Source of the DNA: an uncultured Gemmatimonadaceae bacterium | GTDB lineage: Bacteria > Gemmatimonadota > Gemmatimonadetes > Gemmatimonadales > Gemmatimonadaceae | Reading direction: 5' to 3' | DNA length: 64,000 nt | NCBI GenBank assembly: GCA_963781585.1 | Contig: CAWAGQ010000002.1 | Location: 64,001-128,000, forward strand | Part shown: piece by piece, positions 2 to 24,589 of the stretch | How the letters are laid out: every line of letters starts with the position of its first letter | How positions within the stretch are numbered: the first letter of the stretch is position 1 | The notes under the pieces: generated by a model | Databases searched by the model: none | What the model saw: only the letters and a program-made list of their open reading frames with translations | What the model was told of the DNA's origin: nothing | Position numbers and translations under genes: made by a program

Positions 2-571
2 GTGGCGGTCGCCGACCCGCTCAAGAAGTCCTCGGTGGAGGCGGTGGCGGAGTTGCGCGCGATGGGCCTCGATGTCGTGCTCCTGACCGGCGATGTGGAG
101 GCGACAGCCCGCGCGATCGCCGGGCACGCGGGCATCGAACGCATCGTGGCTGGCGTCCTGCCATCGGGGAAGGTGGACGAGATCACCCGGCTGCAGCAGG
201 AAGGGCGCGTGGTGGCGATGGTGGGCGATGGGATCAATGACGCTCCCGCGCTTGCCCGGGCCGACGTCGGGATCGCGATCGGTACCGGCACCGACATCGC
301 CATCGACGCCAGCGATATCACCCTCATGCGCGGTGACGTGCGCGGTGTGGCCCAGGCCATCAAACTGGCCCGCCGGACGATGCGCACCATGAAGCAGAAC
401 CTCTTCTGGGCGTTCGTCTACAACGTGATCGGCATCCCGATCGCGGCGGGGGTTCTGTACCCGGCCTTCGGCCTGATGCTGAGTCCCATTCTCGCCAGTG
501 CGGCGATGGCCATGAGCTCGGTCAGCGTCGTGTCCAACAGCCTGCGACTGGGCAGGTTCCGTCCTGCCTGA
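2..571 (+). CDS. copA: Cu(I)-translocating P1B-type ATPase, C-terminal part (5' truncated by window)
   Basis: TGD and [11 protein letters not shown] motifs; TM 'YN' (VYNVIG) and 'MAMSS' signatures of the Cu(I) P1B-1 subclass. Confidence 0.93.
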
Positions 572-590
572 CGACCAGGGGAGATCGTCG

Positions 591-968
591 ATGCCGACTC
601 GTGCCACGAAGCCAGACGGACGCGGTCACGCCGCCGGAGCGTGCGGATGCGCCGTGGACCACGCCGCCGCATCGGGCGGACGCAAGGCGGTTGGCGTCGA
701 CCCGGGAATCCGCGAACGTAACCTGAAACGGCTGCGGCGCATCGAGGGTCAGGTGCGCGGGCTCCAGAAGATGGTCAGCGAAGACCGCTACTGCGCCGAC
801 ATCATGACCCAGGTGTCGTCGGTGCACGAGGCGCTGCGCGCCGTGAGCCGGGAACTGATGCGAAACCATCTGCGGCATTGCGCCAGCTCGGCGATCAAGG
901 CGGGGCCCGATGACGCCGAGGCGATGTACGACGAGCTGATCGCACTCATGTATACGCACCTGCGGTAG
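591..968 (+). CDS. csoR: CsoR/RcnR-family copper-sensing repressor
   Basis: RLRRIEGQVRG...RYCADIMTQ...NHLRHC gives the C-H-C ligand set; directly follows copA; N-terminal HAAGACGCAVDH extension. Confidence 0.92.
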   Translation: MPTRATKPDGRGHAAGACGCAVDHAAASGGRKAVGVDPGIRERNLKRLRRIEGQVRGLQKMVSEDRYCADIMTQVSSVHEALRAVSRELMRNHLRHCASSAIKAGPDDAEAMYDELIALMYTHLR

Positions 969-1084: not shown

Positions 1085-2449
1085 GTGATACGCCTGCTTC
1101 CCCGGTACGGAACTTCGGTGCGGCATTTCGCGGTGCTGCTGCTCGCCTTGCATGCCACGTCGCTCGCCGCGCAGCAGGACGAGATGAAGATGCAGATGCC
1201 GACGGGCGTGCTTGGCATTCCGGAGACGCGCGCCGGGTCGGGCACGTCATGGCTCCCCGACTCGTCGTACATGCACGCGACGCACTTCGCGTGGGCCGGC
1301 TGGTCGGCCATGCTCCACGGCGATGTGACGGCGCAGTACGACCGGCAAGGCTCCCGGCGCGGCGACGGGCAGTTCGGCAGCGTAAACTGGGGGATGCTCA
1401 TGCTCATGAGGCCCCTGGGCGGGGTCCAGCTTCATCTGAATGCGATGGTCAGTCTCGAGCCGGCGACGCTTGGTGGGCGCGGCTATCCGTTGCTCCTGCA
1501 GACTGGCGAGTCCTACGGAGGTCAGCCGCTCCACGACCACCAGCACCCGCATGACGCATTCATGGAGCTTGCAGTGAGGGTCGACGGACCCTTGTCACGC
1601 AGTGTCGCGGTGTCGCTGTACGCCGGTGCGGTCGGTGAGCCCGCGCTTGGCCCGGTGGCCTACATGCACCGTCCGTCGACACAGAACGATCCCTTCGCGC
1701 CTCTGAGTCATCACCAGCAGGACGCCACCCACATCACTTTCGGCGTCGTGACTGCCGGCGTCTACGCCGTTCGATGGAAACTCGAAGGCTCGGTGTTCAA
1801 CGGCCGCGAGCCGGACGACCGTCGCTGGAACTTCGACTACCGCGGACGGAGCCTCGACTCGTACTCCGGCCGCGTCACGGTGAATCCAACCGGACGCATG
1901 AGTCTGTCCGGATGGTACGGATATCTGCGAAGCCCCGAGGTTCTGCATCCGGACGAATCGGTGCATCGGTTCGGTGCCTCGTTGCTATTCGCCGCGCGGG
2001 GCTGGTCCGGCGGCGAGTGGTCGTCGTCGATCATCTGGGGTGCCAACCGGACACATGGCTCAACCCGAGGCAGTCTCCTCGCCGAGTCGAATCTGGAGCT
2101 GGGGAGCAAGACGAGTGTCTTCGGTCGCCTGGAGCTCACCCGGAAAAGCGGAGAAGACCTGGATCTCCCCGCGCAGATTCGCGGTGCCACGTACGGCATC
2201 ACCGTGCTGGCGCTGGGCTCCGTGCGCGAGATCGCCTCGATCGGCGCCGGTACGGTGGGGGTTGGCGTGCGCCCGTCCATCAACTTCATCTCGAGATCGC
2301 TCGCCACCGTATACGGCACGCGGCGTCCGGTTGGCATCGACGTGTTCGTGCGTTTCCGGCCAGGCCGCATGACGATGGGCATGACGATGGATCACGAGTT
2401 GCACGGAGCTGGCGGTCCACGAGCGCGCTCTGCCATGCGAGATGAGTGA
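1085..2449 (+). CDS. Exported Met/His-rich hypothetical protein, probable outer-membrane beta-barrel
   Basis: Signal peptide (SLAA|QQ); MKMQM, HDHQHPHD, HHQQDATH and MTMGMTMDHELH segments; alternating beta-strand pattern; overlaps copCD start. Confidence 0.75.
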   Translation: MIRLLPRYGTSVRHFAVLLLALHATSLAAQQDEMKMQMPTGVLGIPETRAGSGTSWLPDSSYMHATHFAWAGWSAMLHGDVTAQYDRQGSRRGDGQFGSVNWGMLMLMRPLGGVQLHLNAMVSLEPATLGGRGYPLLLQTGESYGGQPLHDHQHPHDAFMELAVRVDGPLSRSVAVSLYAGAVGEPALGPVAYMHRPSTQNDPFAPLSHHQQDATHITFGVVTAGVYAVRWKLEGSVFNGREPDDRRWNFDYRGRSLDSYSGRVTVNPTGRMSLSGWYGYLRSPEVLHPDESVHRFGASLLFAARGWSGGEWSSSIIWGANRTHGSTRGSLLAESNLELGSKTSVFGRLELTRKSGEDLDLPAQIRGATYGITVLALGSVREIASIGAGTVGVGVRPSINFISRSLATVYGTRRPVGIDVFVRFRPGRMTMGMTMDHELHGAGGPRARSAMRDE

Positions 2450-3914
2450 CTCCCGGCGCATCCTTGCCGCCACCCTGGTGCTCGCCGCGGCGCTGATCGC
2501 GCTCTTCCCCGCGCGGCTGCTGGCGCACCCGGAGCTCAGGCGGTCGGAACCGGGAAATGGTGCACACCTTGGCGTGGCGCCCCGCCAGATCCTGCTGGAG
2601 TTCAGCGAGGGGGTGGAGCTGGCCACGTTTCGTCTCGTGATGCGCCTTCCGTCGGGAGATTCGCTCGTGTTGTCGGCATCGCGCCCTGCGGGAAATGCCA
2701 GGAGGATGGTGACCGCGGCCGTCGAAGCGGCCATGGGCGCGGGTGCGTATCGCGTCGAATGGTCCGGGATCGGCACCGACGGTCATCCGACGCGGGGCAG
2801 CATCGCGTTCGTGGTTGACCTGCCCATGGTCTCGTCGGACTCGATGAGGGCGGCAACGCCCGCCGCCGCGTCCGACACCGCCGAGCCCCCGGCCGGCGCG
2901 ACGGCGTTGCCGCGGGCCCCGCCGAGCCCGCCGCCCGACATCGTGCGGTCGCCGAGCTACACCGCGGTCCGGTTTCTGACCTACGTGGGATTGCTTGCCG
3001 GACTCGGAGCCGTCGCGATGTTGATGATCGTGTTGCCCCGGGCGCTCGGCGATGCCGCGAAACACGCCAGCAACCAGGTTGAGATTGCGGGAACCAGCGA
3101 TCCGTCTGGACCGGCGGACGGCGGCATCGCGGATCGCGTCCGAAGGGCGGGACGGCTCGGTGCCCTGGTATTGCTCCTGGCGGCGCTCGCGCGGCTTCTG
3201 TTGCAGACGTCGATGGTCGCTGTGGGACCGTCCGGCGCCACGATGGACCTCGCTACACGACTCCTCACCCAGACCACGTGGGGGCGCGCATGGCTGCTGC
3301 AGGTGGCGAGCGCGCTACTCCTCTGGAGCGCCCTGCGCGCGTCGCGCGCCCGCGTCGGGCGTCGCAGCTCGGCCGCGCTCGTCGGGTGCATTGGCGTCGC
3401 CGTCTCCGCCTCACTCTCCGGGCATCCCGTCGCTGCCCGCGACGGGCCGTGGATTGCGGTGGTCCTGGACGCCGTGCACGTCCTGGCTGCCGGCGGCTGG
3501 ATGGGGGCGCTGCTGATCCTCACCCTCGCCGCCGTCCCGGGCGTTGCCGCACTCGATTCGTCCAGGAGAGGCTCCATGGTGGCGGCCATGTTCAGGGCAT
3601 TCTCGCCGATGGCGCTCACATGCGGAACAGTGCTCGCACTCACCGGCGCGGCCGGTGCCTGGATCCAGCTCGGTGGCATCGGTCCGCTCTTCTCCAGCGG
3701 CTACGGACGTACCTTGCTGATCAAGATCGCGGCGGTCGCCGCCGTCGCGGTCGTTGGGGCGTACAACTGGCGCTCGGTGCTGCCGCGGCTCGAAGCCGAT
3801 CGTGGCACGACCAATGTTCGCCGCTCTGCCTTTGTCGAGCTCTCGCTGGCGGGGCTCGTCCTGATCGTCACGGCCGTGCTCACCGGCACGTCGCCGCCGA
3901 TGAGCGGCCGCTGA
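2442..3914 (+). CDS. copCD: Fused CopC (periplasmic Cu-binding) - CopD (inner-membrane) protein
   Basis: Mature N-terminal His (LA|HPEL) and DGH motif of CopC; multi-TM C-terminus with SGH, HVLAAGGWMG and YGRTLLIK motifs of CopD. Confidence 0.88.
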   Translation: MSDSRRILAATLVLAAALIALFPARLLAHPELRRSEPGNGAHLGVAPRQILLEFSEGVELATFRLVMRLPSGDSLVLSASRPAGNARRMVTAAVEAAMGAGAYRVEWSGIGTDGHPTRGSIAFVVDLPMVSSDSMRAATPAAASDTAEPPAGATALPRAPPSPPPDIVRSPSYTAVRFLTYVGLLAGLGAVAMLMIVLPRALGDAAKHASNQVEIAGTSDPSGPADGGIADRVRRAGRLGALVLLLAALARLLLQTSMVAVGPSGATMDLATRLLTQTTWGRAWLLQVASALLLWSALRASRARVGRRSSAALVGCIGVAVSASLSGHPVAARDGPWIAVVLDAVHVLAAGGWMGALLILTLAAVPGVAALDSSRRGSMVAAMFRAFSPMALTCGTVLALTGAAGAWIQLGGIGPLFSSGYGRTLLIKIAAVAAVAVVGAYNWRSVLPRLEADRGTTNVRRSAFVELSLAGLVLIVTAVLTGTSPPMSGR

Positions 3915-4011
3915 TGGAGCGGAGCGTGATCGCGCCCGTGAAGGACCGGGTGGAAAGTCGCAGTCGCCGATGGTAGGGGATCGCCCGACGCCGCACGTCG
4001 GGTCTTCACCC

Positions 4012-4040
4012 TTGATCCACCTGTTCGCGCGGCGTAGGGT
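4012..4040 (+). promoter_or_regulatory. Putative sigma70 promoter for the leader ORF / cus operon
   Basis: TTGATC (4012-4017), 17-nt spacer, TAGGGT (4035-4040). Confidence 0.35.
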
Positions 4041-4122
4041 CAATCGTCAGGTTGGTGGAAGTCGCAGTTGCGGTCCTTTGCGAGCACCAGGTTCCTTCTT
4101 GCACTTCTCCTTTTCGCGCTCG

Positions 4123-4527
4123 ATGCCCGGGTTGTGGCGGACGGTTGCTCTCGTCACGTCACTGGCCCTTCTGCAGACGCTGTCGGCTCCCAGCGGCTTC
4201 GCGTGCGGGGCAATGCCGGTGTCCCATGTCGGCGTGCACGCGGGGATGAGTGCGCCGACTCAGGCGACGGTTGAGCGCCACGATTGCGCAGAGGCAACGG
4301 CGAGCGTTCCGGCGTGCCCGCAGTGCACGCAGTCGTCTCACTCGTCGTGCCCGGGACTTCCGGGAACGGGGGCCTGCGGTCTCCTCGCGGGGTGCGGCGT
4401 GGCGGCGTTCGCGCCCGCGACGGCCCTTCCGGTGCTGACAGCCGCACTGCCTGACGAAGTCCCTACCCTCCGACAGCGCGGACTGGTTCGCCCCACCGCC
4501 CCCGAGCCCCCACCTCCCCGGGCGTAG
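4123..4527 (+). CDS. Cys/His-rich exported leader protein with C-terminal PEPPPPRA (DUF2946/CutF/CruR-like)
   Basis: ATG at 4123; hydrophobic N-terminal signal; CPQC plus five more Cys; Pro-rich C-terminus; immediately upstream of the TolC gene. Confidence 0.72.
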   Translation: MPGLWRTVALVTSLALLQTLSAPSGFACGAMPVSHVGVHAGMSAPTQATVERHDCAEATASVPACPQCTQSSHSSCPGLPGTGACGLLAGCGVAAFAPATALPVLTAALPDEVPTLRQRGLVRPTAPEPPPPRA

Positions 4528-4638
4528 TCTCCTTCACATCGCGGTAATGGCGTTATGCGCCGGCGGAACATCCCGCCGCGCACGCGACAGTCGCACGATG
4601 GGCCGGTTACGGCCATCGGGCACCAGAGGGAGACCTAC
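4524..4638 (+). promoter_or_regulatory. Predicted mRNA structure sequestering the cusC ribosome-binding site
   Basis: GTAGTCTCCTTC (4524-4535, includes the leader stop codon) pairs with GAGGGAGAC-C-TAC (4626-4638) with one G-U and one bulge; internal hairpin CGATGG(G)CCG-GTTA-CGGCCATCG at 4596-4618. Confidence 0.55.
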
Positions 4639-4643
4639 AGTCC

Positions 4644-6134
4644 ATGTGTGCACATGCGGGACCGCGTCGAGTCGATGTTGCGCATCGCCTGACGCTCAGC
4701 GGCATACTCTTCGCGGCGGTCATCGCCAGCACCGGCTCGCCGTGGCCGGCCCGGGCGCAATCAGCCACCGGGTCTGTCTCAGGACGGCCCATCGCTGACA
4801 GCGGCTCATCACTCACGCGCGGGTCGCCGAGGCCGTCCCCCATCCGCTCGGCCCCAGGCGTCCCCAGTGCGTCCGCCTCGCGCTCTGCGTCGACGCCTGC
4901 TCCGGACGGTGCCATCCTTCGCCTCGGCGACGTGTACGCCGGCGTGCATGACCGCAACCCCAAGGCGGCCGCCGCACGTTCGCTCGCCGATGCCGCGCGA
5001 GCGCGCGTGCCGGGCGCATCGCTGCCACCGGATCCGCAGCTTCAACTCGCGTTCATGAATTACGGCGTGCCCGATCTGCGGCCGATGGATCCCACCGGCA
5101 TGCCGCAGCTTCAGGTGATGCAGATGGTGCCCCTGGCCGGCAAACTCGGTCTCTCGGGCCGCATCGCGGCGGCGCAGGCCGATGCTGAAGGCGAGCGCGC
5201 TGCGGACGTGCAATGGGAGCTGCGCAGCGCTGCCGCGATGGCCTTCTACGACTTCTACCAGGCTGACCGTTCGATTGCCGTCGCGGTCGAGACGCGCCGC
5301 CTGCTCCAGGACATCGCCGCCGTCGCGGCGGCGATGTACGAAGTTGGCGAGGGTCGCCAGACCGACGTGCTCCGTGCACAGGTCGAAGTCGCGCGCATGA
5401 CGGAGGAGATCACACGGATGGAAGCGACGCGGGCGGCCGCTGGCGCGCGGCTCAACGCACTGCTCGATCGCGAACCCGACGCTGCGGGGGAAACGGTGTC
5501 GCTGCCCCGCTTTCCGGAAGCCCTGCCCACAGCGGATTCGCTCATGAGCATGGCGTCAACGAATCGGTCGATGATCCGTGCTGGCGAACAGGACGTGCGT
5601 GCCGCCGACGCAATGGCGACCCGCGCCAGACGCGAGCTGATCCCCGACCTGACGATCGGGCTTCAGTACGGACAGCGCAGTGCCGCCATGGGGACCGAGC
5701 ACATGGCGAGCCTCATGCTGGGCGCGTCCATCCCCGTGTTCGCGGGGCGGCGGCAGCTGAAGATGCGTGACGAGGCGGACGCGATGCGCGACATGGCGCA
5801 GGCCGACCTCCGCTACATGCGCGCCGACACGCGCGGACGCGTTGGCGAGGCGTACGCCGCACTCACTCAAGCGCGCAACCTGGAGCGCCTCTATGCCGCC
5901 ACCGTGTTGCCGCAGGCCGACGCCACGGTGGCGTCGGCGACGGCAGCGTATCGCGTGGGACAGGTGGACTTCATGACGCTGCTCGACGACCGCATGACCG
6001 TGAATCGCTACCGGCAGGAGTTCATCGCCCTCCAGGCCGCAGAAGGAAAGGCCTGGGCGGATCTGGAGATGCTCACCGGTACGGAACTCTTCAATGCCAG
6101 CACCACCGCGCTCACGAATGGAGACGCACGATGA
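4644..6134 (+). CDS. cusC: TolC/CusC-family outer-membrane efflux channel, Met-rich
   Basis: Two OEP-like repeats (LPPDPQLQL; YEVGEGRQTDVLRAQ; YRVGQVDFMTLL); first gene of the RND triplet. Confidence 0.85.
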   Translation: MCAHAGPRRVDVAHRLTLSGILFAAVIASTGSPWPARAQSATGSVSGRPIADSGSSLTRGSPRPSPIRSAPGVPSASASRSASTPAPDGAILRLGDVYAGVHDRNPKAAAARSLADAARARVPGASLPPDPQLQLAFMNYGVPDLRPMDPTGMPQLQVMQMVPLAGKLGLSGRIAAAQADAEGERAADVQWELRSAAAMAFYDFYQADRSIAVAVETRRLLQDIAAVAAAMYEVGEGRQTDVLRAQVEVARMTEEITRMEATRAAAGARLNALLDREPDAAGETVSLPRFPEALPTADSLMSMASTNRSMIRAGEQDVRAADAMATRARRELIPDLTIGLQYGQRSAAMGTEHMASLMLGASIPVFAGRRQLKMRDEADAMRDMAQADLRYMRADTRGRVGEAYAALTQARNLERLYAATVLPQADATVASATAAYRVGQVDFMTLLDDRMTVNRYRQEFIALQAAEGKAWADLEMLTGTELFNASTTALTNGDAR

Positions 6135-7634
6135 TCGACATGCGCAGTGATTCGATGACCGCAACCGCCGTTCCGGCAAATGGAGACAGCTCGGTTGCAG
6201 CTGATGCAGACGGCGCGATCGCCTCGCGGGCACGGGTGGCGGATGCGGCCGCGCTTGCAGAACCGTCGCCTTTCGGCGCGCCGAGTGGCGGTGCCGCACG
6301 GATGGTGGCTCGGATCGCCGTGATCGCCGGACTGCTCGTGGTGGCGACGGGCGCGGCCTTCTATTTCGCCCGCGGGCGAAGCACCAGTGGCACAGCGGCC
6401 GCACACAATCATGGCGCCGCCGCCGCTGCGGACGGGGCCGCTCCCGTCATGCTCGACGCCGGTGCGGCGCGCCGGATCGGAGTGACCTACGCCGGCGCGA
6501 CGATGGGGACGCTCGTGGCCGAGGTGCGGACCGTCGGCCAGATCACGTACGACGAAACGCGCCAGGCCGCGATCGCGCCGAAGATCGAGGGCTGGGTGGA
6601 TCACCTGTTCGTGGACTTCACCGGTCAGCAGGTCGAGGAAGGGCAGCCGCTCCTGAGCATCTACTCTCCGATGCTGGTTGCGGCGCAGGAGGAACTGCTT
6701 CTGGCCGCGCGGCTCGTCCCGTGATGTGGCCGATGGTACGCCGGAGGCCAGGCGCTCGGCAGACGATCTGCTCGCGGCGTCGCGTCGCCGGCTGCTGTAC
6801 TGGGATATCCCGGCGAGTGACGTGGAGCGGATCGAACGGACCGGCGAGGTCACCAAGACCCTGACGCTGCGATCGCCGGTGCGCGGCGTCGTGCTGGAGA
6901 AGTCGGTGGTTGCCGGCCAGCGCATCATGGCGGGCCAGTCGGTCTACCAGGTCGCCGACCTGAGCACGGTGTGGGTGGAAGGCGAGGTATTTGAGCGCGA
7001 CATGTCGTTCATGCGTTCCGGTGCGAGAGTGACCGTGGACGTGCAAGCGTATCCCGGTGAGCACTGGAACGGACGCGTGACGTACGTCTACCCCACCGTG
7101 GATCCCGGGACGCGTGCTGTCCGGATCCGCGTGGCGCTGCCAAACCCGGGACTTCGGCTCAAACCCGGCATGTACGCCACGATCCACGTTGCGGGAGCCC
7201 AGCGCGTGGGCGTGATCTCCATTCCTCGCGCGGCGGTGCTCGCGAGCGGCCGGCGAACCGTCGCGTTCGTGAGACGTCCCGACGGCATGCTGGAGCCTCG
7301 GGAGATCGTGACCGGCGTAGCGAACGACGATCGGGTGGAAATCCTGCGTGGTCTCGCGGCCGGCGACACGGTGGTGGCATCGGCGACGTTCCTGATCGAT
7401 GCAGAATCGAACCTCGGGGCCGCGCTCGGCGCGATGGCGGGGATGCCGGGGATGGAGAAACCCGGAGACCAAAGGCCGGCGGTCGGAGACCAGAGGACGG
7501 GTGCGGCCGGATCCGCCGCGGACGTGAAGAGGGGCACTGGCGCGGAGGTCGATGCGGCGGGTGTGCCGATGGATATGCCCGGCATGACGCAACCCGGACC
7601 CACTAGTCCCGCAGTGAAGAAAGGAAAGGAGTAG
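6131..7634 (+). CDS. cusB: CusB-type RND periplasmic adaptor (apparent +1 frameshift near 6720)
   Basis: ORF 6131-6724 ([27 protein letters not shown]) continues in ORF 6678-7634 ([24 protein letters not shown]); removing one C in CTCGTCCCGT restores the frame. Confidence 0.87.
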
Positions 7635-7638
7635 CGCC

Positions 7639-10600
7639 ATGCTCAAGCGCATCATCGAATGGTCGGTCGCCAACAAGCTGCTCGTCGTGCTGTTCACGCT
7701 CGCGGCGGCGCTGGGCGGCATCTGGGCGGTACGTCGCACGCCGCTCGAAGCGCTCCCCGACCTCTCCGACGTGCAGGTCATCGTGCAGACCGATTACAAC
7801 GAGCAGGCGCCGCAGATCGTGGAGGATCAGGTCACCTACCCGATCACCGCCGAGATGCTGAAGGTGCCCGGCGCGCGCGTGGTCCGCGGCTACTCGTTCT
7901 TCGGCGTGTCGTTCGTCTACGTGATCTTCCAGGATGGCACCGACCTGTACTGGGCGCGATCACGGGTTCTCGAGTACCTCAACGGACTCGTGGCCAAGCT
8001 GCCCGCAAGCGTCATCACCGCGCCTGGGACCGGACGCCACCGGACTGGGATGGGTCTTCCAGTACGCGCTCGAGGACACGAGCGGACGTCTCGATCTCGC
8101 GCAGCTGCGCAGCCTGCAGGACTGGTACGTGCGTTATGCGTTGACCGCGGTTCCCGGTGTGTCCGAGGTGGCGTCGGTGGGGGGATTCGAGAAGCAGTAC
8201 CAGGTGGACGTGGATCCCGAGAAGCTGCTGGCCTACGGGATTCCGGTCACGCGTGTGATGGAGGCCATCCGTAACGCGAACGCCGACGTCGGCGCGATGG
8301 TGCTCGAGCTGGCCGACCGCGAGTACATGGTGCGCGGGCTGGGGTACCTCGAATCGATTGGCGACATCGAGAACGTGGTGGTGGGCGCCACCGCGTCGGG
8401 TACGCCGATCCGGGTGGCCGAGCTGGGGCGGGTGTCGGTCGGTCCGGCGGTGCGGCGGGGCGTCGCCGACCTCGATGGGCGGGGTGACGCGGTGGGAGGG
8501 ATCGTGGTGATGCGATTCGGGGAGAACGCACTCGCCACCATCGAGCGGGTGAAGGCGAAGCTGGTCGAGGTGGAGAGAGGCCTGCCGCCGGGCGTGGTGA
8601 TCCAGCCGGTCTACGATCGCTCCGACCTCATTCACCGCGCCATTGAAACGCTGCGCGGCAAGCTGTTCGAGGAGAGCCTGATCGTCGCGCTGGTCTGTCT
8701 GGTCTTCCTCTTCCACGCCCGGTCCGCGCTGGTCGCCATTCTCACGCTTCCGTTAGGCGTGCTGATCGCGTTCATCGCCATGCGCTGGGTGGGGGTGGGC
8801 GCGGACATCATGTCGCTGGGCGGCATCGCCATCGCGGTCGGCGCCATGATCGACGCGGCGATCGTGATGGTCGAGAACATGCACAAGCACATCGAGCGGG
8901 CGCAGGGCAACGCCCCGATCGTTCGGGCGGTCCGCCCCGTCAGATTCTCGCTCGCGCGAATCCTCGGGCGCCGCTCTGCCGGAGCGGATTCGCGCGACGC
9001 GGATGTGCGGTGCACGATCCCCGCATCGCGGCGCTGGCAGATCGTCGTCGATTCGTCGAAGGAAGTGGGCCCGGCCCTCTTCTTCTCGCTGCTCATCATC
9101 ACGGTGTCGTTCCTCCCCGTGTTCACGCTGGAGGGACAGGAGGGACGCCTGTTCCGGCCGCTGGCGTTCACCAAGACGTTTGCGATGGCCGGCGCCAGCC
9201 TGCTGTCGGTGACCATCGTGCCGGTGATGATGGGCCTCTTCATCCGCGGACGGATCTACCGGGAGCGGGCCAATCCGGTGAACCGGGCGCTCATCAGGAT
9301 CTACCGCCCGGTCATCGAGTTCGTGCTCCGCCACCGGCTCGGCGTGATCGTGGCAAGCGGAATGGTGCTGATCCTCACCTGGATTCCGTGGAGCCGCATC
9401 GGCAGCGAGTTCATGCCGCCCCTGGAGGAGGGGTCCATTCTCTACATGCCCACCACGCTCCCGGGTGTGAGCGTGGCGCGCGCGCGCGCGATCCTGCAGA
9501 CACAGGACTCGATTCTCAAGTCCTTCCCGGAGGTGGAGCACGTGTGGGGAAAGAGCGGGCGCGCGAACACCGCGACCGATCCGGCCGGGCTCGACATGAT
9601 CGAGACGACGATCACGCTGAAGCCGAAGCAGGAATGGCGGAGCGGAATGACGCTACGATCGTCTCGTCGCGGCGATGGACTCGGCCGTGCGGCTTCCCGG
9701 GGTGTCCAACTCGTGGACCATGCCCATCAAGGGACGCATCGACATGCTCGCGACAGGCATTCGCACTGCCGTCGGCATCAAGATCTTCGGGCCGGACCTG
9801 GGCACACTGGAGCGCCTGGGAAAGGAAGTCGAAGATGCGGTTCGCATGGTTCCCGGAACGCGTACCGCATTCGCCGAGCGCGCCCAGTCGGGATAGTATC
9901 TCGACATCGCGATCGACCGGGCGGCGGCGGCCCGCTACGGGTTGAACGTGGGTGACGTGCAGGCCGTGATCGCCACGGCCATCGGCGGCATGACGATCAC
10001 GCAGACAGTGGAGGGTCGGGAGCGGTACGCGGTCCGCGTGCGCTATCCGCAGGAGCTGCGCGACAGTCCGGAGCGCCTGGCGAGCGTGCTGGTGAGCGTC
10101 CGGATCGGGGCGCCGTCGAAGGGCCGGTGCGCAACCGGGCGGAAATGGGAGGCAGATGAGCGGGATGGGCGCCGCGGCGCCCGCCGCCGCAGCGCGCAGA
10201 TCCCGTTAGGCCAGGTGGCGACGATTCGCGAGGTGCCCGGGCCGATGGTGGTGCGCACCGAGGGCGCAGTACCCACCGCCTGGGTCTACGTCGACATCAT
10301 AGGCCGCGACATCGGGAGCTACGTGCGCGAAGCGCAGGCAGCACGTGGAGGACATGGTGGTGCTGCCGCAAGGATACACGCTCACCTGGAGCGGGCAGTA
10401 CGAGTACATGCAGCGAGCACGCGAACGGATGAAACTGGTGGTGCCCGCCACGCTGGCCATCGTGTTCCTGCTGCTCTACTTCAACTTCAGGAGTGTGGCG
10501 GAAACGGCCATCGTCATGCTTTCGCTTCCGTTCGCGCTGGTTGGCGGCATCTGGTTCCTCTGGGCGTTGCACTACAACTGGTCGGTGGCGGTGGCGATCG

Positions 10601-11064
10601 GCTTCATCGCGCTGGCGGGCGTGGCGGCGGAAACGGGCGTCGTGATGCTGATCTTTCTCGATCTGGCGTGGCGGGCCAGGACGTCACGGGCCGGCCGTCC
10701 CACCCTGGCGGATCTGTACGACGCGGTGATCGAGGGAGCCGTGGAACGCGTGCGCCCGCGAATGATGACGACGGCCGCGATCATGGCCGGCCTCCTCCCC
10801 ATTCTCTGGGGAACGGGCGCGGGCGCGAGCGTCATGAAGCGCATCGCTGCGCCGATGGTGGGCGGCATGATCAGCAGCACGATCCTGACGCTGGTGGTGA
10901 TCCCGGCGATCTACGCGTTCTGGAAGGAACGCGAGGTGCGGGTGGCGCAGCGACGTGCCGCAGAGCGCGCCCCTGCGCTGGGCGCCGCCCTCGCCTTCGC
11001 TGGTGCATCGAACATTCCGCCGACCCCGCGGTCGCCGGGGCACGAATACAAGGAGGAGCCATGA
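7639..11064 (+). CDS. cusA: CusA/CzcA heavy-metal RND permease (several apparent frameshifts and an in-frame TAG at 9894-9896)
   Basis: [44 protein letters not shown] and [11 protein letters not shown] motifs spread over frames; breaks near 8014, 9652, 9894, ~10110-10195 and 10344. Confidence 0.88.
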
Positions 11065-11594
11065 AGCGCCGGAAATCGAAGACCACGCCAGCCGTCCACC
11101 AGGGCGATCGACGATCCGGCCGCGTACTGATGTCGAGGCGCGCCTGGTTCGGCGCCGCCGCAGGCGGAGCGGCCGTGCTGCTGGCCGGAAGGCGGTTCTG
11201 GCCGGCGACTGCAACAGCGCGCCGCGCAGGCCAGGTCACCGTGTACCGGAGCCCGCTGTGCAGCTGCTGCGGCAACTGGATCGGCGACATGCGCAAGGCG
11301 GGATTCAACGTCGATGAGGTGAGCATGGACGACGTGACGCCAATCAAGCGCACGCGCGGCGTGCCGGAGCGTCTGTACGCCTGTCACACGGCCGAGGCGG
11401 AAGGATTCGTGTTCGAGGGGCACGTGCCGCCCGATCTGGTGTCGCGGATGTTGCGTGAGCGTCCCGCGTTCCTCGGACTCGCTGTGCCGGGGATGCCGCA
11501 GAGCGCTCCGGGAATGGATATCGGTCACCAGCCGTACGACGTGATCTCGTTCACCCGGGGTGGCCAGACGGCCGTCTTTGCGAGGAGGTCGTGA
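11061..11594 (+). CDS. copG: DUF411/CopG-family periplasmic copper protein
   Basis: VYRSPLCSCCGNW, CHTA..EGHVP and GLAVPGMP motifs; AGGAGG SD; twin-arginine-like SRRAWF signal. Confidence 0.85.
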   Translation: MKRRKSKTTPAVHQGDRRSGRVLMSRRAWFGAAAGGAAVLLAGRRFWPATATARRAGQVTVYRSPLCSCCGNWIGDMRKAGFNVDEVSMDDVTPIKRTRGVPERLYACHTAEAEGFVFEGHVPPDLVSRMLRERPAFLGLAVPGMPQSAPGMDIGHQPYDVISFTRGGQTAVFARRS

Positions 11595-14117: not shown

Positions 14118-14840
14118 ATGCAACTCACGCTGCGCGAGGCGGCAAAATACCTGGACGTGAGCGAGAGCTCGCTCCGCCGATGGATCACTGAACGGGATCT
14201 TCCCGTTCACACGATGAATGAGCGGCTCTACCTGAATGCCGTGGAGCTGTGGGAATGGGCTGTGGAACACGGCGTCCATGTGTCTCGCCGCCTCATGGAG
14301 CACGCACGGCGCGCTCCCGATCCGGTGCCACCCATCTCGGAATTGCTGCGCGCCGGCGGCGTGTTTCACGACGTGGAAGCCCCTGACAAGCCGGCGCTCC
14401 TCCGGGAGATCGTCGCCCGCCTGGCCCTTCCACCGGAGCAGAACCGCGACGCGCTGCTGAGTGTCCTCGAAGCACGCGAAGCGATGGGCTCCACCGGCAT
14501 CGGCGATGGGATCGCGATTCCGCACGTGCGGAATCCGATCGTTCTTCACGTAGAGCGGCCGTTCGTCGCGCTGTGTCTTCTGCGTCACGCGGTGGAGTTC
14601 GACGCGATCGACGGCCAGCCGGTACATGCGCTCTTCATCGTGGTCAGTCCCACCGTTCCCATGCACCTGCGCATCCTTGGTCAGCTTGGCTTCCTGCTGC
14701 GTGACCAGATGCTGCGACACATGCTCCGCGATCGCCTGACGGCGGACGAGATTCTCGGACGCATCGAGATGGTCGAGGCTACGCACACCACGGGATCGTT
14801 CTCGCTGGGCGCCTCCCCCGGCGCTCGGACCAGCACGTAA
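14118..14840 (+). CDS. HTH (excisionase/MerR-like) - PTS EIIA (PtsN-like) fusion regulator
   Basis: N-terminal LTLREAAKYLDVSESSLRRWI; EIIA motif REAMGSTGIGDGIAIPH with the phospho-His; TAATG coupling to the next gene. Confidence 0.88.
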   Translation: MQLTLREAAKYLDVSESSLRRWITERDLPVHTMNERLYLNAVELWEWAVEHGVHVSRRLMEHARRAPDPVPPISELLRAGGVFHDVEAPDKPALLREIVARLALPPEQNRDALLSVLEAREAMGSTGIGDGIAIPHVRNPIVLHVERPFVALCLLRHAVEFDAIDGQPVHALFIVVSPTVPMHLRILGQLGFLLRDQMLRHMLRDRLTADEILGRIEMVEATHTTGSFSLGASPGARTST

Positions 14841-16810
14841 TGGCGCTGTTCTTCGCCGGACTGGGCCTGATCATCGCCGGCGCCATCGTCGCCACGATCC
14901 TCCGGGAATGGGATGGAGCAGACGCGCTCTTTCAGGTGCTGGTCATCACCGGGTGCGTCCTGTCGGGCGCCCAAGCCGTGTCGGTGCTGGTGCAGGGCAC
15001 CCATCCCCAGTTCGTGCTGCACGCGTCTGTGCCCGGGGGCGACTGGGTATTCGGCATCGATGCGCTCTCGGCGGTGTTCCTCCTGGTCGTCCTTGTCGTG
15101 GGCGCCATCACGCTGCGCTTCGGCGTCGTGTATCTCGCGGCGTACCGCGGGCAGCGCCCGATCTGGTTTTCGCACGCGACGTACGCCGTTCTCCTTGTCG
15201 CCCTCGCTCTGGTCGTCGTCGCGCGCGCCGTCGTGCCGTTCCTCTCGGCATGGGAGATCATGGCGGTCGGTTCGTACTTCCTCATCGTCTTCGAGGATGA
15301 GAAACCCGAGGTGCGGCGTGCCGGTCTGGTGTACCTCGTTGCCACGCATGCCGGGACCCTGGCGCTCTTGGCGATGTTTGCGACCTGGGCGATGGGAGCC
15401 CACGCCGCGGACTGGTCGTTCTCGTCGCTCGCGGTCGTCGCGCCTCGGCTGGCGGGCGGCGGGTTCGTGCTGACGCTGGCCGCTGTCGGGTTCGGCGTGA
15501 AGGCCGGCCTCGTCCCACTGCATTTCTGGCTTCCGCCCGCCCACGCCGCCGCGCCCACACACGTGTCCGCAATCCTTTCCGGGGTTGTGATCAAGGCCGG
15601 GATCTATGGTCTGCTGCGGGTGCTCGCGATGCTGGGTGGCGCACCCGCCTGGTGGGGATGGGGCTTGCTGCTGGTGGGCGCCGCCTCTGGTGTGCTGGGT
15701 GTGCTGTGGGCCCTGGCGCAGCACGACCTCAAACGCCTGCTGGCGTACCACAGCGTCGAGAACATCGGCATCATCCTGATGGGAACCGCCGTCGGTGCGT
15801 TAGGCACGCACTACGGGCACCCGGTCGTGGCGACCATCGGCTACGCCGGCGCCGTGCTGCACACCATCAACCATGCGCTCTTCAAGAGCGTCCTCTTCCT
15901 GGCAGGGGGCTCGGTGTATCGGGCGACCGCGACCAGGGAACTGGAGCAGCTCGGCGGACTCGCGCGGGCGCTGCCGTACACCACGATCGCCTTTGTCATC
16001 GGTGCGGTGGCCATCATCGGATTGCCGCCCCTCAACGGTTTCGTGAGCGAATGGCTCGTGTACCAGGCCCTGTTGCGCGCGTCCCAGTCGGCCGAGGTGC
16101 TTCGTCTCGCCGTACTCGGCGTGCCGGCCCTGGCCTTGATCGGCGCGCTGGCCCTCGCGTGTTTCGCCAAGGTCATCGGGGTGGTCTTTCTGGGTACACC
16201 CCGAAGCGCACACGCGCGAGACGTGAGCGAGGTGCCGCTCCGCCCGCTCGTCGCTCCCATGTACGTGCTCGCCGGCCTTTGCGTCGTGCTCGGTGTAGCC
16301 GCGCCTCTCGGAGTGGCACCTTCACTGCGCGCCGGAGCGATCGCCGCGCACGCGTCGGCCGTGGATCTGGGAGACGCCCGTGCGCTGCTCGTGGATGCGC
16401 GCGTGATCGGCACGCTGGCCGTCGCGATGCTCGCACTCATTCTTGTGGTCTGGGTCGGCCGTGGGCTATTGCAGGCGCGCGCACCGCGGCGGACCGGCGT
16501 GACATGGAGCTGCGGATACACTCGTGTCTCCCCGCGCATGCAGTACACCGCCTCGTCGTTCGCGGCGCCTCTGCTCACCGCGTTCGGACGCCTGAGCGGA
16601 GTGCAGACCTCGCGATCACCCACCTCGTTCGCGACGCATCCGTACGATCTGGTGCTCGATCGCCTGGCCGCGCCCGTCTGGGCACGTGTCCGTCGAGCGG
16701 CCCTGCGCCTGCGCCCTCTGCAGCAGGGGCGGCTGTACGCGTACCTCATCTACGTCATGACGGCTCTGCTCGCGCTCCTCGGTTACCTCGCCCTCGCATC
16801 GCGCCCATGA
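14840..16810 (+). CDS. hyfB: Antiporter-like membrane subunit, HyfB/EhrA type
   Basis: AWEIM, KAGLVPLHFWLPPAHAAAP, DLKRLLAYHSVENIG, NHALFKS, LPPLNGFVSEW and MQYTASSF motifs. Confidence 0.9.
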   Translation: MALFFAGLGLIIAGAIVATILREWDGADALFQVLVITGCVLSGAQAVSVLVQGTHPQFVLHASVPGGDWVFGIDALSAVFLLVVLVVGAITLRFGVVYLAAYRGQRPIWFSHATYAVLLVALALVVVARAVVPFLSAWEIMAVGSYFLIVFEDEKPEVRRAGLVYLVATHAGTLALLAMFATWAMGAHAADWSFSSLAVVAPRLAGGGFVLTLAAVGFGVKAGLVPLHFWLPPAHAAAPTHVSAILSGVVIKAGIYGLLRVLAMLGGAPAWWGWGLLLVGAASGVLGVLWALAQHDLKRLLAYHSVENIGIILMGTAVGALGTHYGHPVVATIGYAGAVLHTINHALFKSVLFLAGGSVYRATATRELEQLGGLARALPYTTIAFVIGAVAIIGLPPLNGFVSEWLVYQALLRASQSAEVLRLAVLGVPALALIGALALACFAKVIGVVFLGTPRSAHARDVSEVPLRPLVAPMYVLAGLCVVLGVAAPLGVAPSLRAGAIAAHASAVDLGDARALLVDARVIGTLAVAMLALILVVWVGRGLLQARAPRRTGVTWSCGYTRVSPRMQYTASSFAAPLLTAFGRLSGVQTSRSPTSFATHPYDLVLDRLAAPVWARVRRAALRLRPLQQGRLYAYLIYVMTALLALLGYLALASRP

Positions 16811-17745
16811 ATGCGGACCTGGCAACGCGGCCGGCGCTCGTGTCGGCGTTGGTGGCGTGGGTTGTCCTGCTCCTCACTGCGCCCCTCATCCCCGGCGTGG
16901 CGACGAGGACGAACGCGCTGCTCACCGGCCGTCGTGGCGCACCCGTGTGGCAACTGTACGCGGATCTGTGGAAGCTGCTGCGACGCGGCACGGTCTATAG
17001 CGCCACGGCCACGATGATCTTCCGACTCGTGCCGGTGGTACTCGCGGTGACCACGGTGCTCGCCGCCGCGCTCGTCCCGCTCGATGGCCGGCGGTCGCTC
17101 ATCGGTTTCTCGGGAGACGCGGTCGCCTTTGTGTACCTGCTGGCGCTGGGGCGCCTGCTCCTGGTCCTGGGGGCGTTCGACACGGGGTCCAGCTTCGGAG
17201 GCATGGGTGCGAGTCGGGAAGTGACGCTCGCGAGTCTGGTCGAGCCGGGACTCTTCATCTCGCTGGCGGCCCTGGTGGTGACGACGCATCGTCTGTCGTT
17301 GACCGGCATGCTCGGCGCTCAGCTCTGGAGCCAGCCGCGGCTCGTTGCGCCAACCGTCCTGCTGCTCGCCGGCAGCATTTTCGTGCTGATGCTCTCGGAA
17401 TGCGCGCGTGTGCCCGTGGACGACCCCGCGACCCACCTCGAGCTGACCATGATCCATGAAGTCATGGTGCTCGATCACAGCGGCCCCGATCTGGCGCTGA
17501 TCCTGTACTCCGGCGCCCTCAAGCTCGGCGTGTTCGCCGCGTTGCTGGTGGACCTCGTCGTACGACGGACGACCGTCCCGTCGTGGCTCGCATCGCTCGA
17601 ACTTCTGGGCGGACTGCTGATGGCGGGTATCGCCATTGGCGTCGTGGAAGGGTCCACGGCCCGTCTCCGCCTGCCGAAAGTCCCGCTGTACATCGCCGGC
17701 GGCGCGGCGCTGGCGTTCTTCGGCTTGATCCTGGTCCTCCAGTAG
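16807..17745 (+). CDS. hyfC: NuoH/HyfC-type membrane subunit
   Basis: GRRGAPVWQLYADLWKLL, GASRE, RVPVDDPATHLELTMIHE; ATGA overlap with hyfB. Confidence 0.9.
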   Translation: MNADLATRPALVSALVAWVVLLLTAPLIPGVATRTNALLTGRRGAPVWQLYADLWKLLRRGTVYSATATMIFRLVPVVLAVTTVLAAALVPLDGRRSLIGFSGDAVAFVYLLALGRLLLVLGAFDTGSSFGGMGASREVTLASLVEPGLFISLAALVVTTHRLSLTGMLGAQLWSQPRLVAPTVLLLAGSIFVLMLSECARVPVDDPATHLELTMIHEVMVLDHSGPDLALILYSGALKLGVFAALLVDLVVRRTTVPSWLASLELLGGLLMAGIAIGVVEGSTARLRLPKVPLYIAGGAALAFFGLILVLQ

Positions 17746-22905: not shown

Positions 22906-24589
22906 ATGCGCCGCCGCGCGGTCTTCGCCGTTCTCGCCCTCATCGCCTGGAACCCAGCCGTGACTGCGGCCCAATCGCCCAGCATCACCCTGGCCGTGGT
23001 GAACGCCCGCGTCTGGACCGGCGATCCCGCGCCGGCCGTGGGCCGACGGCCGTCGCCATCGCCGGCGACCGCATCGCCGCCGTGGGCTCCTCGGCCGAGA
23101 TCCGGAAGCTCGCCGGTCAGGCGCGAACGATAGATGCCGGCGGCCAGTTCGTGGCCCCCGGGTTCATCGACTCCCACGTCCACTTCCTCGAGGGCGGATT
23201 CCGGCTCTCGTCGGTGCAGCTGCGCGACGCCGGCACGCCCGAGGAGTTCGTTCGACGCATCCGGGAATTCGCCGCCACGGTTCCGAAGGGCGCCTGGATC
23301 ACCGGCGGCGACTGGGATCATCAGCGCTGGGGCGGGGAGCTTCCCGAGCGCTCGTGGATCGACACGGTGACCCCCGACAATCCGGTCTGGGTGAATCGCC
23401 TTGATGGCCACATGGCGCTCGCCAATTCCGCCGCGCTGCGCGCGGCAGGCAGTCACGCGCGCCACCGCCGATATCGCGGGCGGCACGATCGTGCGCGACC
23501 CGACCGGCGAGCCCACCGGCATTCTCAAGGACAACGCGCAGAACCTGGTGGAGCGCGTGGTGCCTGCGCCGCCCGCGTCACTGGAGGACCGCGCCCTCGA
23601 TGCGGCGATGGCGTACGTGGCGGCGCAGGGGGTGACGTCGGTGCACCACATGGGCAGCTGGCACGATCTGGCGGTGTTCGAGCGCGCCCATGCCGCCGGC
23701 CGGTTGCGCACGCGGATCTATGCGGCGGTTCCCCTCGCGACCTGGGCGCGGCTCCGCGACACCGTCGCCGCCCGCGGGCGCGGCGACGAGTGGCTGCGCA
23801 TCGGCGCCCTGAAAGGCTTCGTCGACGGATCGTTAGGCTCGCATACCGCGGCCATGTTCGACCCGTTCACCGATGCGCCCACGGACACGCGGGTTGTTCG
23901 TGAATACGCCCGGCGACCTCTACCAGTGGACATCCGGGGCCGACAAGGCCGGTCTCCACGTCATCGTCCACGCCATCGGGGACCGCGCCATCGCCACGCA
24001 GCTCGACATCTACCAGCGCGTCGAGCGCGAGGACGGTCCCCGCGACCGCCGCTTCCGCATCGAGCACGCCCAGCACATCGCCCCGGCCGATTTTCCGCGC
24101 TTCGCCGCGTTGGGCGTGGTGGCGAGCATGCAACCCTACCACGCCATCGACGACGGACGGTGGGCCGAGAAGGTCATCGGTCCCGAGCGGGCGAAGGGGA
24201 CCTACGCCTTCCGCACCCTGCTCGATCGTGGCGCCACGCTCGCGTTCGGCAGCGACTGGTTCGTGGCGCCGCCCACGCCGCTGGACGGCATCTACGCCGC
24301 AGTCACCCGCCGCACCCTCGACGACGCGCACCCCGATGGATGGATTCCGGAGCAGAAGATCACGGTCGAGGACGCGCTCCGCGCGTACACCGCTGGAGGT
24401 GCCTTCGCATCCTTCGAGGAAGCCGGGAAGGGCGTCCTGGCGCCCGGCAAGCTCGCCGATCTGGTCATGATCGACCGCGACCTCACGCGTATCCCATCGG
24501 TGGAGATTCGGAACGCCCATGTGGTCATGACGGTGGTGGGCGGCAGGATCATCTACGAGCGGCCGAAGCAGCCTCGCGAGTCGAATTGA
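22906..24589 (+). CDS. Exported metal-dependent amidohydrolase (YtcJ/amidohydro_3 family), apparently frameshifted at ~23030-23050, ~23451 and ~23890
   Basis: [36 protein letters not shown] and GKLADLV motifs across frames. Confidence 0.87.

Follow-up and report, generated by a model that had tools for sequence, protein, structure and literature searches.

A leader gene ahead of a cusCBA-like operon

The window analyzed here, 64,000 nucleotides from an uncultured Gemmatimonadaceae bacterium (contig CAWAGQ010000002.1; G+C content 67%), carries near its start a gene for a small cysteine-rich protein, referred to below as the leader, followed by a cusC-like gene for the outer-membrane factor of a heavy-metal resistance-nodulation-division (RND) efflux system (Table 1). 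An earlier note, made from the letters of the window, had proposed that the leader senses copper and gates translation of a cusCBA-copG operon by ribosome stalling. Because a CopA fragment, a CsoR-type repressor, a CopC-CopD fusion, cusCBA and a DUF411 domain run together, the leader sits, by gene content, in a copper island before a heavy-metal RND system, in agreement with the copper context given in that note. The operon itself proved less tidy than described: cusC is intact and a DUF411 domain lies downstream, but the cusB frame is broken once and the cusA frame three times. These breaks, mapped by tblastn with the intact orthologues of a related locus (L001, described below), stem either from pump genes in decay or from indels introduced by the assembly. 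No interruption affects the leader, the spacer or cusC, and most genes further along the window are intact.

Table 1. Features of the leader-cusCBA region and its 5′ flank (positions in the window)
Feature	Position	Strand	Details
P-type ATPase, C-terminal part (CopA fragment)	2-571	+	
CsoR-type repressor	516-968	+	
454-aa open reading frame without family match	1085-2449	+	
CopC-CopD fusion	2442-3914	+	
Leader gene	4123-4527	+	ATG 4123 to TAG 4525-4527, 134 aa; family without name, Gemmatimonadota
Export-signal-like N-terminus	4123-4206	+	residues 1-27, up to near-invariant Cys28 in GFAC
CPQC (C65-C68)	4315-4326	+	motif of the earlier note; not conserved in the family (alignment A3)
Cx5C, C85 to C91	4375-4395	+	invariant in the family; followed by a hydrophobic stretch to about residue 109
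Tail T-A-P-E-P-P-P-P-R-A and UAG	4495-4527	+	invariant; candidate arrest module
5′ arm of closing helix (anti-Shine-Dalgarno)	4524-4535	+	last base of Ala134 codon, UAG stop and UCUCCUUC
Two inner hairpins within the closing helix	4541-4618	+	4541-4594 and 4596-4618; lowest-energy fold
3′ arm of closing helix	4626-4638	+	contains cusC Shine-Dalgarno GGGAGA (4628-4633)
cusC-like gene (OEP/TolC), intact	4644-6134	+	Pfam OEP E = 3.5e-34; 73.5% identity to L001 orthologue
cusB-like membrane-fusion protein gene	6131-7634	+	one +1 frame break near 6715; HlyD_D23 match over two frames; tblastn with L001 CusB
cusA-like heavy-metal RND pump gene	7639-11064	+	three +1 breaks (~8000-8106, 9652, 10331-10345)
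DUF411 (CopG-like) domain, 3′ of cusA	11376-11516	+	Pfam DUF411 E = 3.8e-20, within frame 9942-11594

The leader and its protein

The open reading frame (ORF) reads as the earlier note had described it, with 134 codons, seven cysteines (C28, C55, C65, C68, C76, C85 and C91 in the translation), a CPQC motif, and a C-terminus of PTAPEPPPPRA directly before the stop, in which PPPP occupies residues 129-132. Alignments within the family (A1 and A3), like one with L001 (A4), favor the start at ATG 4123 over ATG 3970, from which an alternative longer frame is present in the window. The N-terminus is basic and hydrophobic, and 113 of 121 family members pass a hydropathy heuristic that asks for a basic residue followed by a hydrophobic N-terminal segment; three of the eight that miss it are N-terminally truncated gene calls, and the window leader scores 1.79 against a threshold of 1.8, short by 0.01. 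AlphaFold2, run on alignment A3, returned a mean confidence (pLDDT) of 58, with residues 59-112 below 50 and a confident helix at residues 4-21, so that no globular domain is predicted and the signal helix is the only confidently modeled part.

Relatives were found in database searches and the tail differs from that of L001 by synonymous changes only, and for these reasons we regard the leader ORF, on its sequence, as a conserved and translated gene. Its codon-position GC signal is weaker than that of neighboring genes (0.78 at the third position, 0.66 at the second). A block just 5′ of the leader start (CCAGGT...CTT...GCA...TTTCG) is kept between window positions 4085-4125 and L001 positions 5750-5790. 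The cusC Shine-Dalgarno (SD) sequence is strong, in contrast to both leaders, for which we recognized none. UAG is the stop codon of the leader in both loci, yet this carries no signal, because TAG terminates 10 of the 28 confident genes in the window.

An uncharacterized protein family with an invariant tail

An exhaustive phmmer search over 1.84 billion cluster representatives matched the leader to six proteins (E 2e-12 to 6e-4), all ending in APE[PL]PPPRA, and profile searches gave 18 matches at first and 180 later at E <= 0.01. The leader is thus conserved, as the proposed switch presupposes, and its tail is the most conserved part. With 120 of the 180 profile matches listed, and tail counts covering 124 family matches, PE[PL]PPP[RK]x-stop was present in 120 of the 124 and the stricter ending APE[PL]PPPRA in 105; two of the four exceptions have the motif plus a short extension. 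Among these 120 tail-bearing members, 119 carry Cx5C with its second cysteine 38-42 residues before PPP, the spacing being 38 residues in 15 members, 39 in 78, 40 in 20, 41 in 3 and 42 in 3.

The rest of the protein is far more variable. Alignment A3, of 22 sequences, has a mean column identity of 24%; its invariant columns are C85, C91, A126, P127, E128, P130-P132 and R133, with Cx5C in all 22 members, and C28, P63, P77, T125 and A134 are near-invariant. Five of the 22 have PEL instead of PEP in the tail, and many family members contain His/Met-rich stretches. CPQC, the motif named in the earlier note, is not conserved, only the position of its second cysteine being loosely shared in A3, and its place is taken by the invariant C85-x5-C91. 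By these alignments and counts, the tail and its spacing from Cx5C are the strongest constraints in the family.

All five matches with a taxon label (P0016, P0049, P0114, P0120 and P0125) come from Gemmatimonadota, as does L001. Members are named 'hypothetical protein' apart from a single match that its source names 'Mrp family chromosome partitioning ATPase' although it is 131 aa long; this protein and another that carries a precomputed DsbD-type domain (PF02683) are the matches P0087 and P0122, and the two labels likely reflect a mis-annotation and a fused or mis-called ORF.

Other searches returned little. Pfam had no match for the window leader even at E <= 10, and NCBIfam had none either; a single-sequence word-index search gave 241 candidates, none of them at E <= 0.01. 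Against 72,556 plasmids, tblastn found a single irrelevant match to the leader (E = 4) and five distant TolC matches to CusC. Scanning a genome collection for the tail pattern produced at least 598 stretches and one confirmed relative (L001); these stretches cannot be read as family members because chance matches of that order could arise, a Pro/Ala/Arg-rich 10-mer being able, on a rough estimate, to match some hundreds of times by chance in 596 Gb of six-frame sequence. The nearest named neighbors in a protein-language-model search were DUF6660, DUF2946 and CzcI clusters (0.93-0.94), which serve as a lead only. The parallel with CruR (DUF2946) drawn in the earlier note has no counterpart in a Pfam match: the DUF2946 profile (PF11162) had no significant match in any of the 22 members of A3, and one match at E = 0.12.

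A predicted long-range helix over the cusC Shine-Dalgarno sequence

In the lowest-energy fold of positions 4500-4660, bases 4524-4535 pair with 4626-4638 in a closing helix of 12 base pairs that has one G-U pair (U4533-G4628) and one bulged C, encloses smaller hairpins and contains the cusC SD, as the earlier note had proposed. The SD lies 10 nt before the cusC start codon (ATG 4644), and the spacer between leader and cusC is 116 nt long. The arm-to-arm duplex has a calculated energy of -18.2 kcal/mol. Pairing with the SD arm that was equal or better occurred in a fraction of 6.3e-4 of 42,656 16-nt windows drawn from both strands of the 64-kb sequence, and the ensemble assigns a probability of about 1.0 to pairing between the SD bases and the stop-proximal arm. 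When the messenger was masked to 10 nt past the stop codon, five of the seven SD bases became unpaired with probabilities of 0.81-0.98, and the other two stayed paired (unpaired probability 0.02-0.18). By these structure predictions the helix is beyond chance pairing. Searches of the whole window with Rfam at its gathering threshold and for tRNAs found nothing, and neither a sigma-70 promoter nor an intrinsic terminator was found in scans of positions 3800-4750.

A second locus with the same arrangement

L001, the sole related DNA locus confirmed by the genome scan, lies in a Gemmatimonadaceae metagenome-assembled genome. Its leader, which probably starts at GTG 5788 and stops at 6205-6207, is followed by a 119-nt spacer and then by OEP, CusB and CusA genes, all intact, so that outer-membrane factor, membrane-fusion and RND genes stand downstream of the leader in both loci for which there is DNA. 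L001 CusA scores above the curated cut-off set for TIGR00914, the model of the CusA/CzcA heavy-metal family. Identity between the two loci is about 59-88% across tblastn segments of CusCBA but only about 36-43% for the leader. Within the 10 tail codons (alignment A2) there are four synonymous and no non-synonymous differences, so that selection on the tail acts at the level of the peptide. From the stop codon onward, 18 of 20 bases are identical, and the remaining spacer is roughly half identical; because the stop-proximal bases are kept while the spacer diverges, the comparison points to an RNA-level constraint on the anti-SD arm.

In the predicted L001 fold, too, a closing helix links the stop-proximal sequence with the SD, and three inner hairpins of different sequence occupy the matching position within it (duplex energy -16.2 kcal/mol; probability of the SD pairing with the stop-proximal arm about 1.0). 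The single difference between the loci within the arms is a U to C change that makes the G-U pair of the window a G-C pair. In both loci the prediction of the closing helix comes close to certainty.

Adjoining the L001 leader and cusCBA, on the minus strand at 3417-5564, are divergent genes for an OmpR-type response regulator and a histidine kinase. The transcriptional layer thus differs between the loci, with copCD and csoR upstream in the window and a regulator/kinase pair in L001, while leader and helix are kept.

Comparison with known leader systems

The closest parallel is CutF of Rhodobacter capsulatus (cutFOG), an exported protein with Cys motifs, a PPP sequence and an SD-shielding stem-loop, for which copper prolongs stalling (PMC9973294; bioRxiv 10.1101/2025.02.05.636593) and stalling depends on PPP (bioRxiv 10.1101/2025.02.05.636593). 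Both CutF and the leader described here are small, apparently exported products of the first gene of a copper operon, have several cysteines including a short Cys motif, end in a C-terminal PPP tail, and precede a structure predicted or known to hide the SD of the next gene; the logic proposed below, in which metal lengthens the stall, so that the helix is melted and translation of the downstream gene can begin, is likewise that of CutF. The downstream gene, by contrast, encodes an RND outer-membrane factor instead of a multicopper oxidase, the Cys motif is Cx5C instead of CxxxC, the tail APEPPPPRA is invariant and ends at the stop, the phylum is Gemmatimonadota, and the helix is long-range, spanning about 100 nt around two or three hairpins with its 5′ arm over the stop codon. 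As in switches of the CutF, SecM and MifM type, a ribosome on the last leader codons could reach the predicted SD-pairing helix.

Several of the rules by which CutF-like proteins were collected (PMC9973294) also describe the present leader: it is shorter than 150 aa (134 aa), has PP within 15 residues of the C-terminus, and has a same-strand neighbor less than 1000 nt away, an OEP gene in both loci after spacers of 116 and 119 nt. For the further rule of a Sec signal peptide predicted by SignalP (SPI or SPII), the leader shows a basic and hydrophobic N-terminus and the helix predicted at residues 4-21, and it falls just short of the hydropathy threshold. Members of the collection were gathered by jackhmmer iterations seeded with CutF. 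In that collection, OEP/CusC-type genes of RND systems are the most frequent downstream neighbor, and SilD and CusD are labelled (PMC9973294, Ozturk et al. 2023). Neither the tail motif nor 'Gemmatimonad' occurs in the text supplements of PMC9973294, which do not include the protein lists.

CruR (Bp2923) of Bordetella pertussis (PMC9426467) resembles the leader in being an upstream ORF with an export signal and a long spacer that heads a copper-related operon, and in having a Cys motif at a fixed distance from a Pro-containing C-terminal motif. That distance differs, 38-42 residues here against 45 plus or minus one or two in DUF2946 proteins (PMC9426467), and two features of CruR, its CXXC motif and RAPP three residues before the end (PMC9426467), have no counterpart: neither CXXC nor CxxxC is conserved in the leader family, the window CPQC not being kept, and RAPP is absent from the tail, which here is PPPRA-stop. 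CruR acts through Rho-dependent termination, with copper relieving arrest, and controls uptake by a TonB-dependent transporter; in the present loci it is SD sequestration that is conserved at the RNA level, and an efflux system is the target.

SilD and CusD of Cupriavidus metallidurans are also small, signal-bearing, Cys/His/Met-rich proteins encoded immediately upstream of silC or cusC. SilD (pMOL30) has A-Y-A-C after its signal, comparable to G-F-A-C here, together with CxxxC and PRPPPRP near the C-terminus; unlike the leader, it runs 12 residues past the Pro stretch and is followed by a spacer of 72 nt. Aligning the family profile with SilD by hhalign gave a probability of only 17.7%, which is not significant. 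CusD has been interpreted as a mature copper-binding lipoprotein (PMC10304878), and a leader function of SilD/CusD is a candidate role. In a single fold of the 72-nt silD-silC spacer (L002, NC_007971.2, 19940-20050, minus strand), bases near the silD stop codon pair with the silC SD region (z = -3.26), a geometry like that of the window in a proteobacterial CutF-like leader ahead of an RND operon.

Translocation-sensing arrest peptides (PMC10951233) share with the leader an exported or membrane-targeted product, a conserved C-terminal arrest motif and an arrest that opens an SD structure, some classes stalling at poly-Pro and some with a stop codon in the A site; they differ in sensing force, not metal, in targeting secA, secDF and yidC, and in having RAPP-like or other motifs. 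For other leaders, ribosomes have been shown to arrest when a stop codon occupies the A site and also at LPPP (PMC10987492). CzcI (PF28244), encoded upstream of czcCBA in C. metallidurans, is a further small periplasmic protein heading a heavy-metal RND operon, without a C-terminal proline motif (PMC9973294). Profiles of CzcI and of DUF6660 (PF20365) had no match at E <= 10 in any of the 22 members of A3. A PEP-CTERM sorting signal was also considered; such signals have a PEP motif and, behind it, a transmembrane helix and a C-terminal basic cluster. The leader does not fit this pattern, as its chain ends six residues (PPPPRA) after the P-E of the tail, with no hydrophobic helix.

A proposed copper-responsive arrest-peptide switch

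The close parallel of the leader and helix features with known arrest systems leads us to favor, as modestly probable, a switch of the CutF type in which metal induces translation of cusC and, probably by coupling, of cusBA. The N-terminal signal would direct the leader to export, and its Cys-rich part (the invariant Cx5C together with C28 and C76) would sense a thiophilic metal, copper or another, either at the translocon or beyond the cytoplasm. The metal state would set how long the ribosome dwells on APEPPPPRA-stop, pausing either within the PPPP run or when UAG occupies the A site. Because the base just before the stop codon is the first of the 5′ arm, a ribosome halted on the final codons should cover the anti-SD arm, releasing the cusC SD for initiation by a second ribosome; if there were no pause, the helix would re-form after termination and cusC translation would be low. 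The footprint of a ribosome reaches about 12-15 nt downstream of the codon being decoded. With UAG in the A site it would hold the entire 5′ arm, and with PPPP in the P and A sites part of it; the SD, 100 nt away yet brought near by the helix, would be released either way.

This predicted geometry of an arm overlapping the stop codon is the strongest argument for the switch. The invariant tail at the stop, the fixed distance to Cx5C, the export signal and the lack of a predicted fold would mark the product as a nascent-chain sensor as opposed to a folded protein. From these features we infer that the ribosome stalls, in which direction control runs, that copper is the ligand and that the switch depends on export.

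A number of observations weigh against such a switch. Each of its steps is proposed from sequence and predicted structure, and homology to DUF2946, CutF or SilD is undetectable. The frame breaks in cusB and cusA may mean that this genome retains the switch only as a relic, unless the breaks are assembly errors. Neither leader has a recognizable SD of its own, and spacers of 116-119 nt exceed most CutF-type spacers (<100 nt, PMC9973294). The tail carries much weight in the search profile, which makes the counts of its conservation circular in part, although the first six single-sequence matches and the fixed Cx5C spacing are less touched by this. On the RNA side, the stability of the whole region is only moderately unusual in the window (z = -2.18; 4 of 200 shuffles fold as well), and although no shuffle out of 200 was as stable in L001 (z = -2.65), the z-scores of both loci are modest. 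The helix recurs in L001, but RNAalifold did not recover it from the two-locus MAFFT alignment, no pair is changed on both sides, the bulge position is shifted, and the evidence comes from two loci whose arms are also constrained by the SD sequence itself. Masking the stop-proximal arm of L001 freed its SD only partly (unpaired probabilities 0.03-0.44), as the cusC coding region is predicted to offer alternative pairing partners.

A more specific version, which we consider possible but doubtful, holds that APEPPPPRA-stop is an arrest module of its own that arose in Gemmatimonadota independently of DUF2946. The ribosome would stall at termination after PPPP, its P site holding Ala and its A site UAG, metal would be sensed as Cx5C emerges into the translocon as opposed to by a folded periplasmic domain, and the long-range helix would unmask a ribosome-binding site about 100 nt away. 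Sensing on emergence is suggested because Cx5C lies 38-42 residues back, roughly one exit-tunnel length. If true, this would be a distinct and compact design for metal-gated translation of RND efflux genes.

Alternative explanations

The leader product might instead act as a mature protein, an exported or lipid-anchored periplasmic Cu(I) buffer or chaperone feeding CusCBA, with the Pro tail a structural or interaction motif and the helix incidental or a means of mild coupling. Conserved cysteines and the His/Met-rich stretches of many members would suit such a role, as would the conserved Cys right after the signal-like segment, a possible lipobox-like site; CusD of C. metallidurans has been described as a copper-binding lipoprotein that passes Cu(I) to CusF and CusCBA (PMC10304878). 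We think this unlikely. A binding protein should keep its fold, whereas conservation here peaks in the last 10 residues ending at the stop and in the 38-42 spacing, AlphaFold2 gives no fold for residues 59-112, and the anti-SD arm abuts the stop codon in both loci. That cusD alone is expressed when no metal is added (PMC10304878) also fits a leader.

Less likely again is constitutive translational coupling, in which each terminating ribosome opens the helix and metal control is transcriptional only, through the CusRS-like pair in L001 and CsoR or other regulators in the window. The helix geometry would suffice for this without arrest, and candidate regulators are at hand, a regulator/kinase pair adjacent in L001 and csoR in the window. 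What coupling leaves unexplained is the invariant APEPPPPRA, the fixed-spacing Cx5C and the export signal across about 120 otherwise divergent proteins.

Attenuation of the CruR type, with a ribosome at the tail gating access of Rho to the 116-nt spacer and premature termination before cusC as the output, seems to us quite improbable, even though the long spacers (116-119 nt) recall the 162 nt between cruR and bfrG (PMC9426467) and a Cys motif and arrest tail stand at fixed spacing as in CruR. Neither spacer has a composition rich in C and poor in G (40 C and 36 G among 116 nt in the window; 41 C and 34 G among 119 nt in L001), and the spacers would be poor Rho-loading sites because they are predicted to be almost fully base-paired; the terminator scan found no intrinsic terminator, and what the RNA conserves is specifically the pairing of an anti-SD with an SD. 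Finally, that the ORF and the helix both arose by chance in GC-rich DNA is effectively refuted: spurious long ORFs are abundant in such genomes, the leader has a weak codon-position signal and Pfam, NCBIfam and Rfam gave no match, but well over 100 relatives share its frame and C-terminus, its tail differs from that of L001 only synonymously, and the helix recurs there.

Relation to published work and significance

The principle of copper-sensing leaders and their association with genes for RND outer-membrane factors are already published. The statement in the earlier note that no such switch had been described for an RND operon therefore holds only for experimental demonstration, because OEP is reported as the commonest neighbor of CutF-like leaders (PMC9973294); the leaders tested in the published CutF and CruR work come from two Pseudomonadota and control an oxidase and an uptake transporter. 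What appears to be new is a family without a Pfam or NCBIfam model, its motifs Cx5C and APEPPPPRA-stop, the phylum, and a long-range helix overlapping the stop codon. In the literature library searched, no paper has 'EPPPPRA' and 'PPPPRA' occurs in unrelated eukaryotic proteins, and a search on arrest peptides and copper in Gemmatimonadota returned nothing on this leader family.

CutF and CruR represent a recently discovered route by which an extracytoplasmic metal signal is coupled to expression through the translating ribosome. The present family stands outside Pfam, in a poorly studied phylum and before a heavy-metal RND efflux operon, and its features are unusually clean: an invariant 10-residue tail at the stop, Cx5C at a fixed 38-42 residues from it, and an anti-SD over the stop codon. 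If the proposed switch operates, the mechanism would extend to efflux pumps and to Gemmatimonadota, arrest-peptide research would gain a new motif, and metal-resistance operons annotated as purely transcriptional in their control would carry a hidden translational layer.

Neighboring genes and other features of the window

Upstream of the copCD gene, the ORF at 1085-2449 has a signal-like N-terminus, His/Met-rich stretches and a coding-type third-position GC content of 0.80, and matches nothing in Pfam or NCBIfam; it may encode an undescribed outer-membrane or periplasmic copper protein. The gap of 208 nt between copCD and the leader contains a direct repeat with the core AAGTCGCAGTYGC, at 3955-3967 and 4059-4071 (wider copies at about 3949-3969 and 4054-4073), 104 nt apart. 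At no more than one mismatch the core matches the window four times, where 0.23 matches would be expected. An operator or a promoter element are possible roles for the repeat, which was not found upstream of the L001 leader.

Two further observations concern reading frames elsewhere in the window. An amidohydrolase ORF at 23837-24589 covers only positions 260-472 of the Amidohydro_3 profile, its N-terminal part being in another frame or missing, and the ORFs at 14840-16810 and 15652-17745 overlap on the same strand. Together they suggest more frame breaks in the first third of the window.

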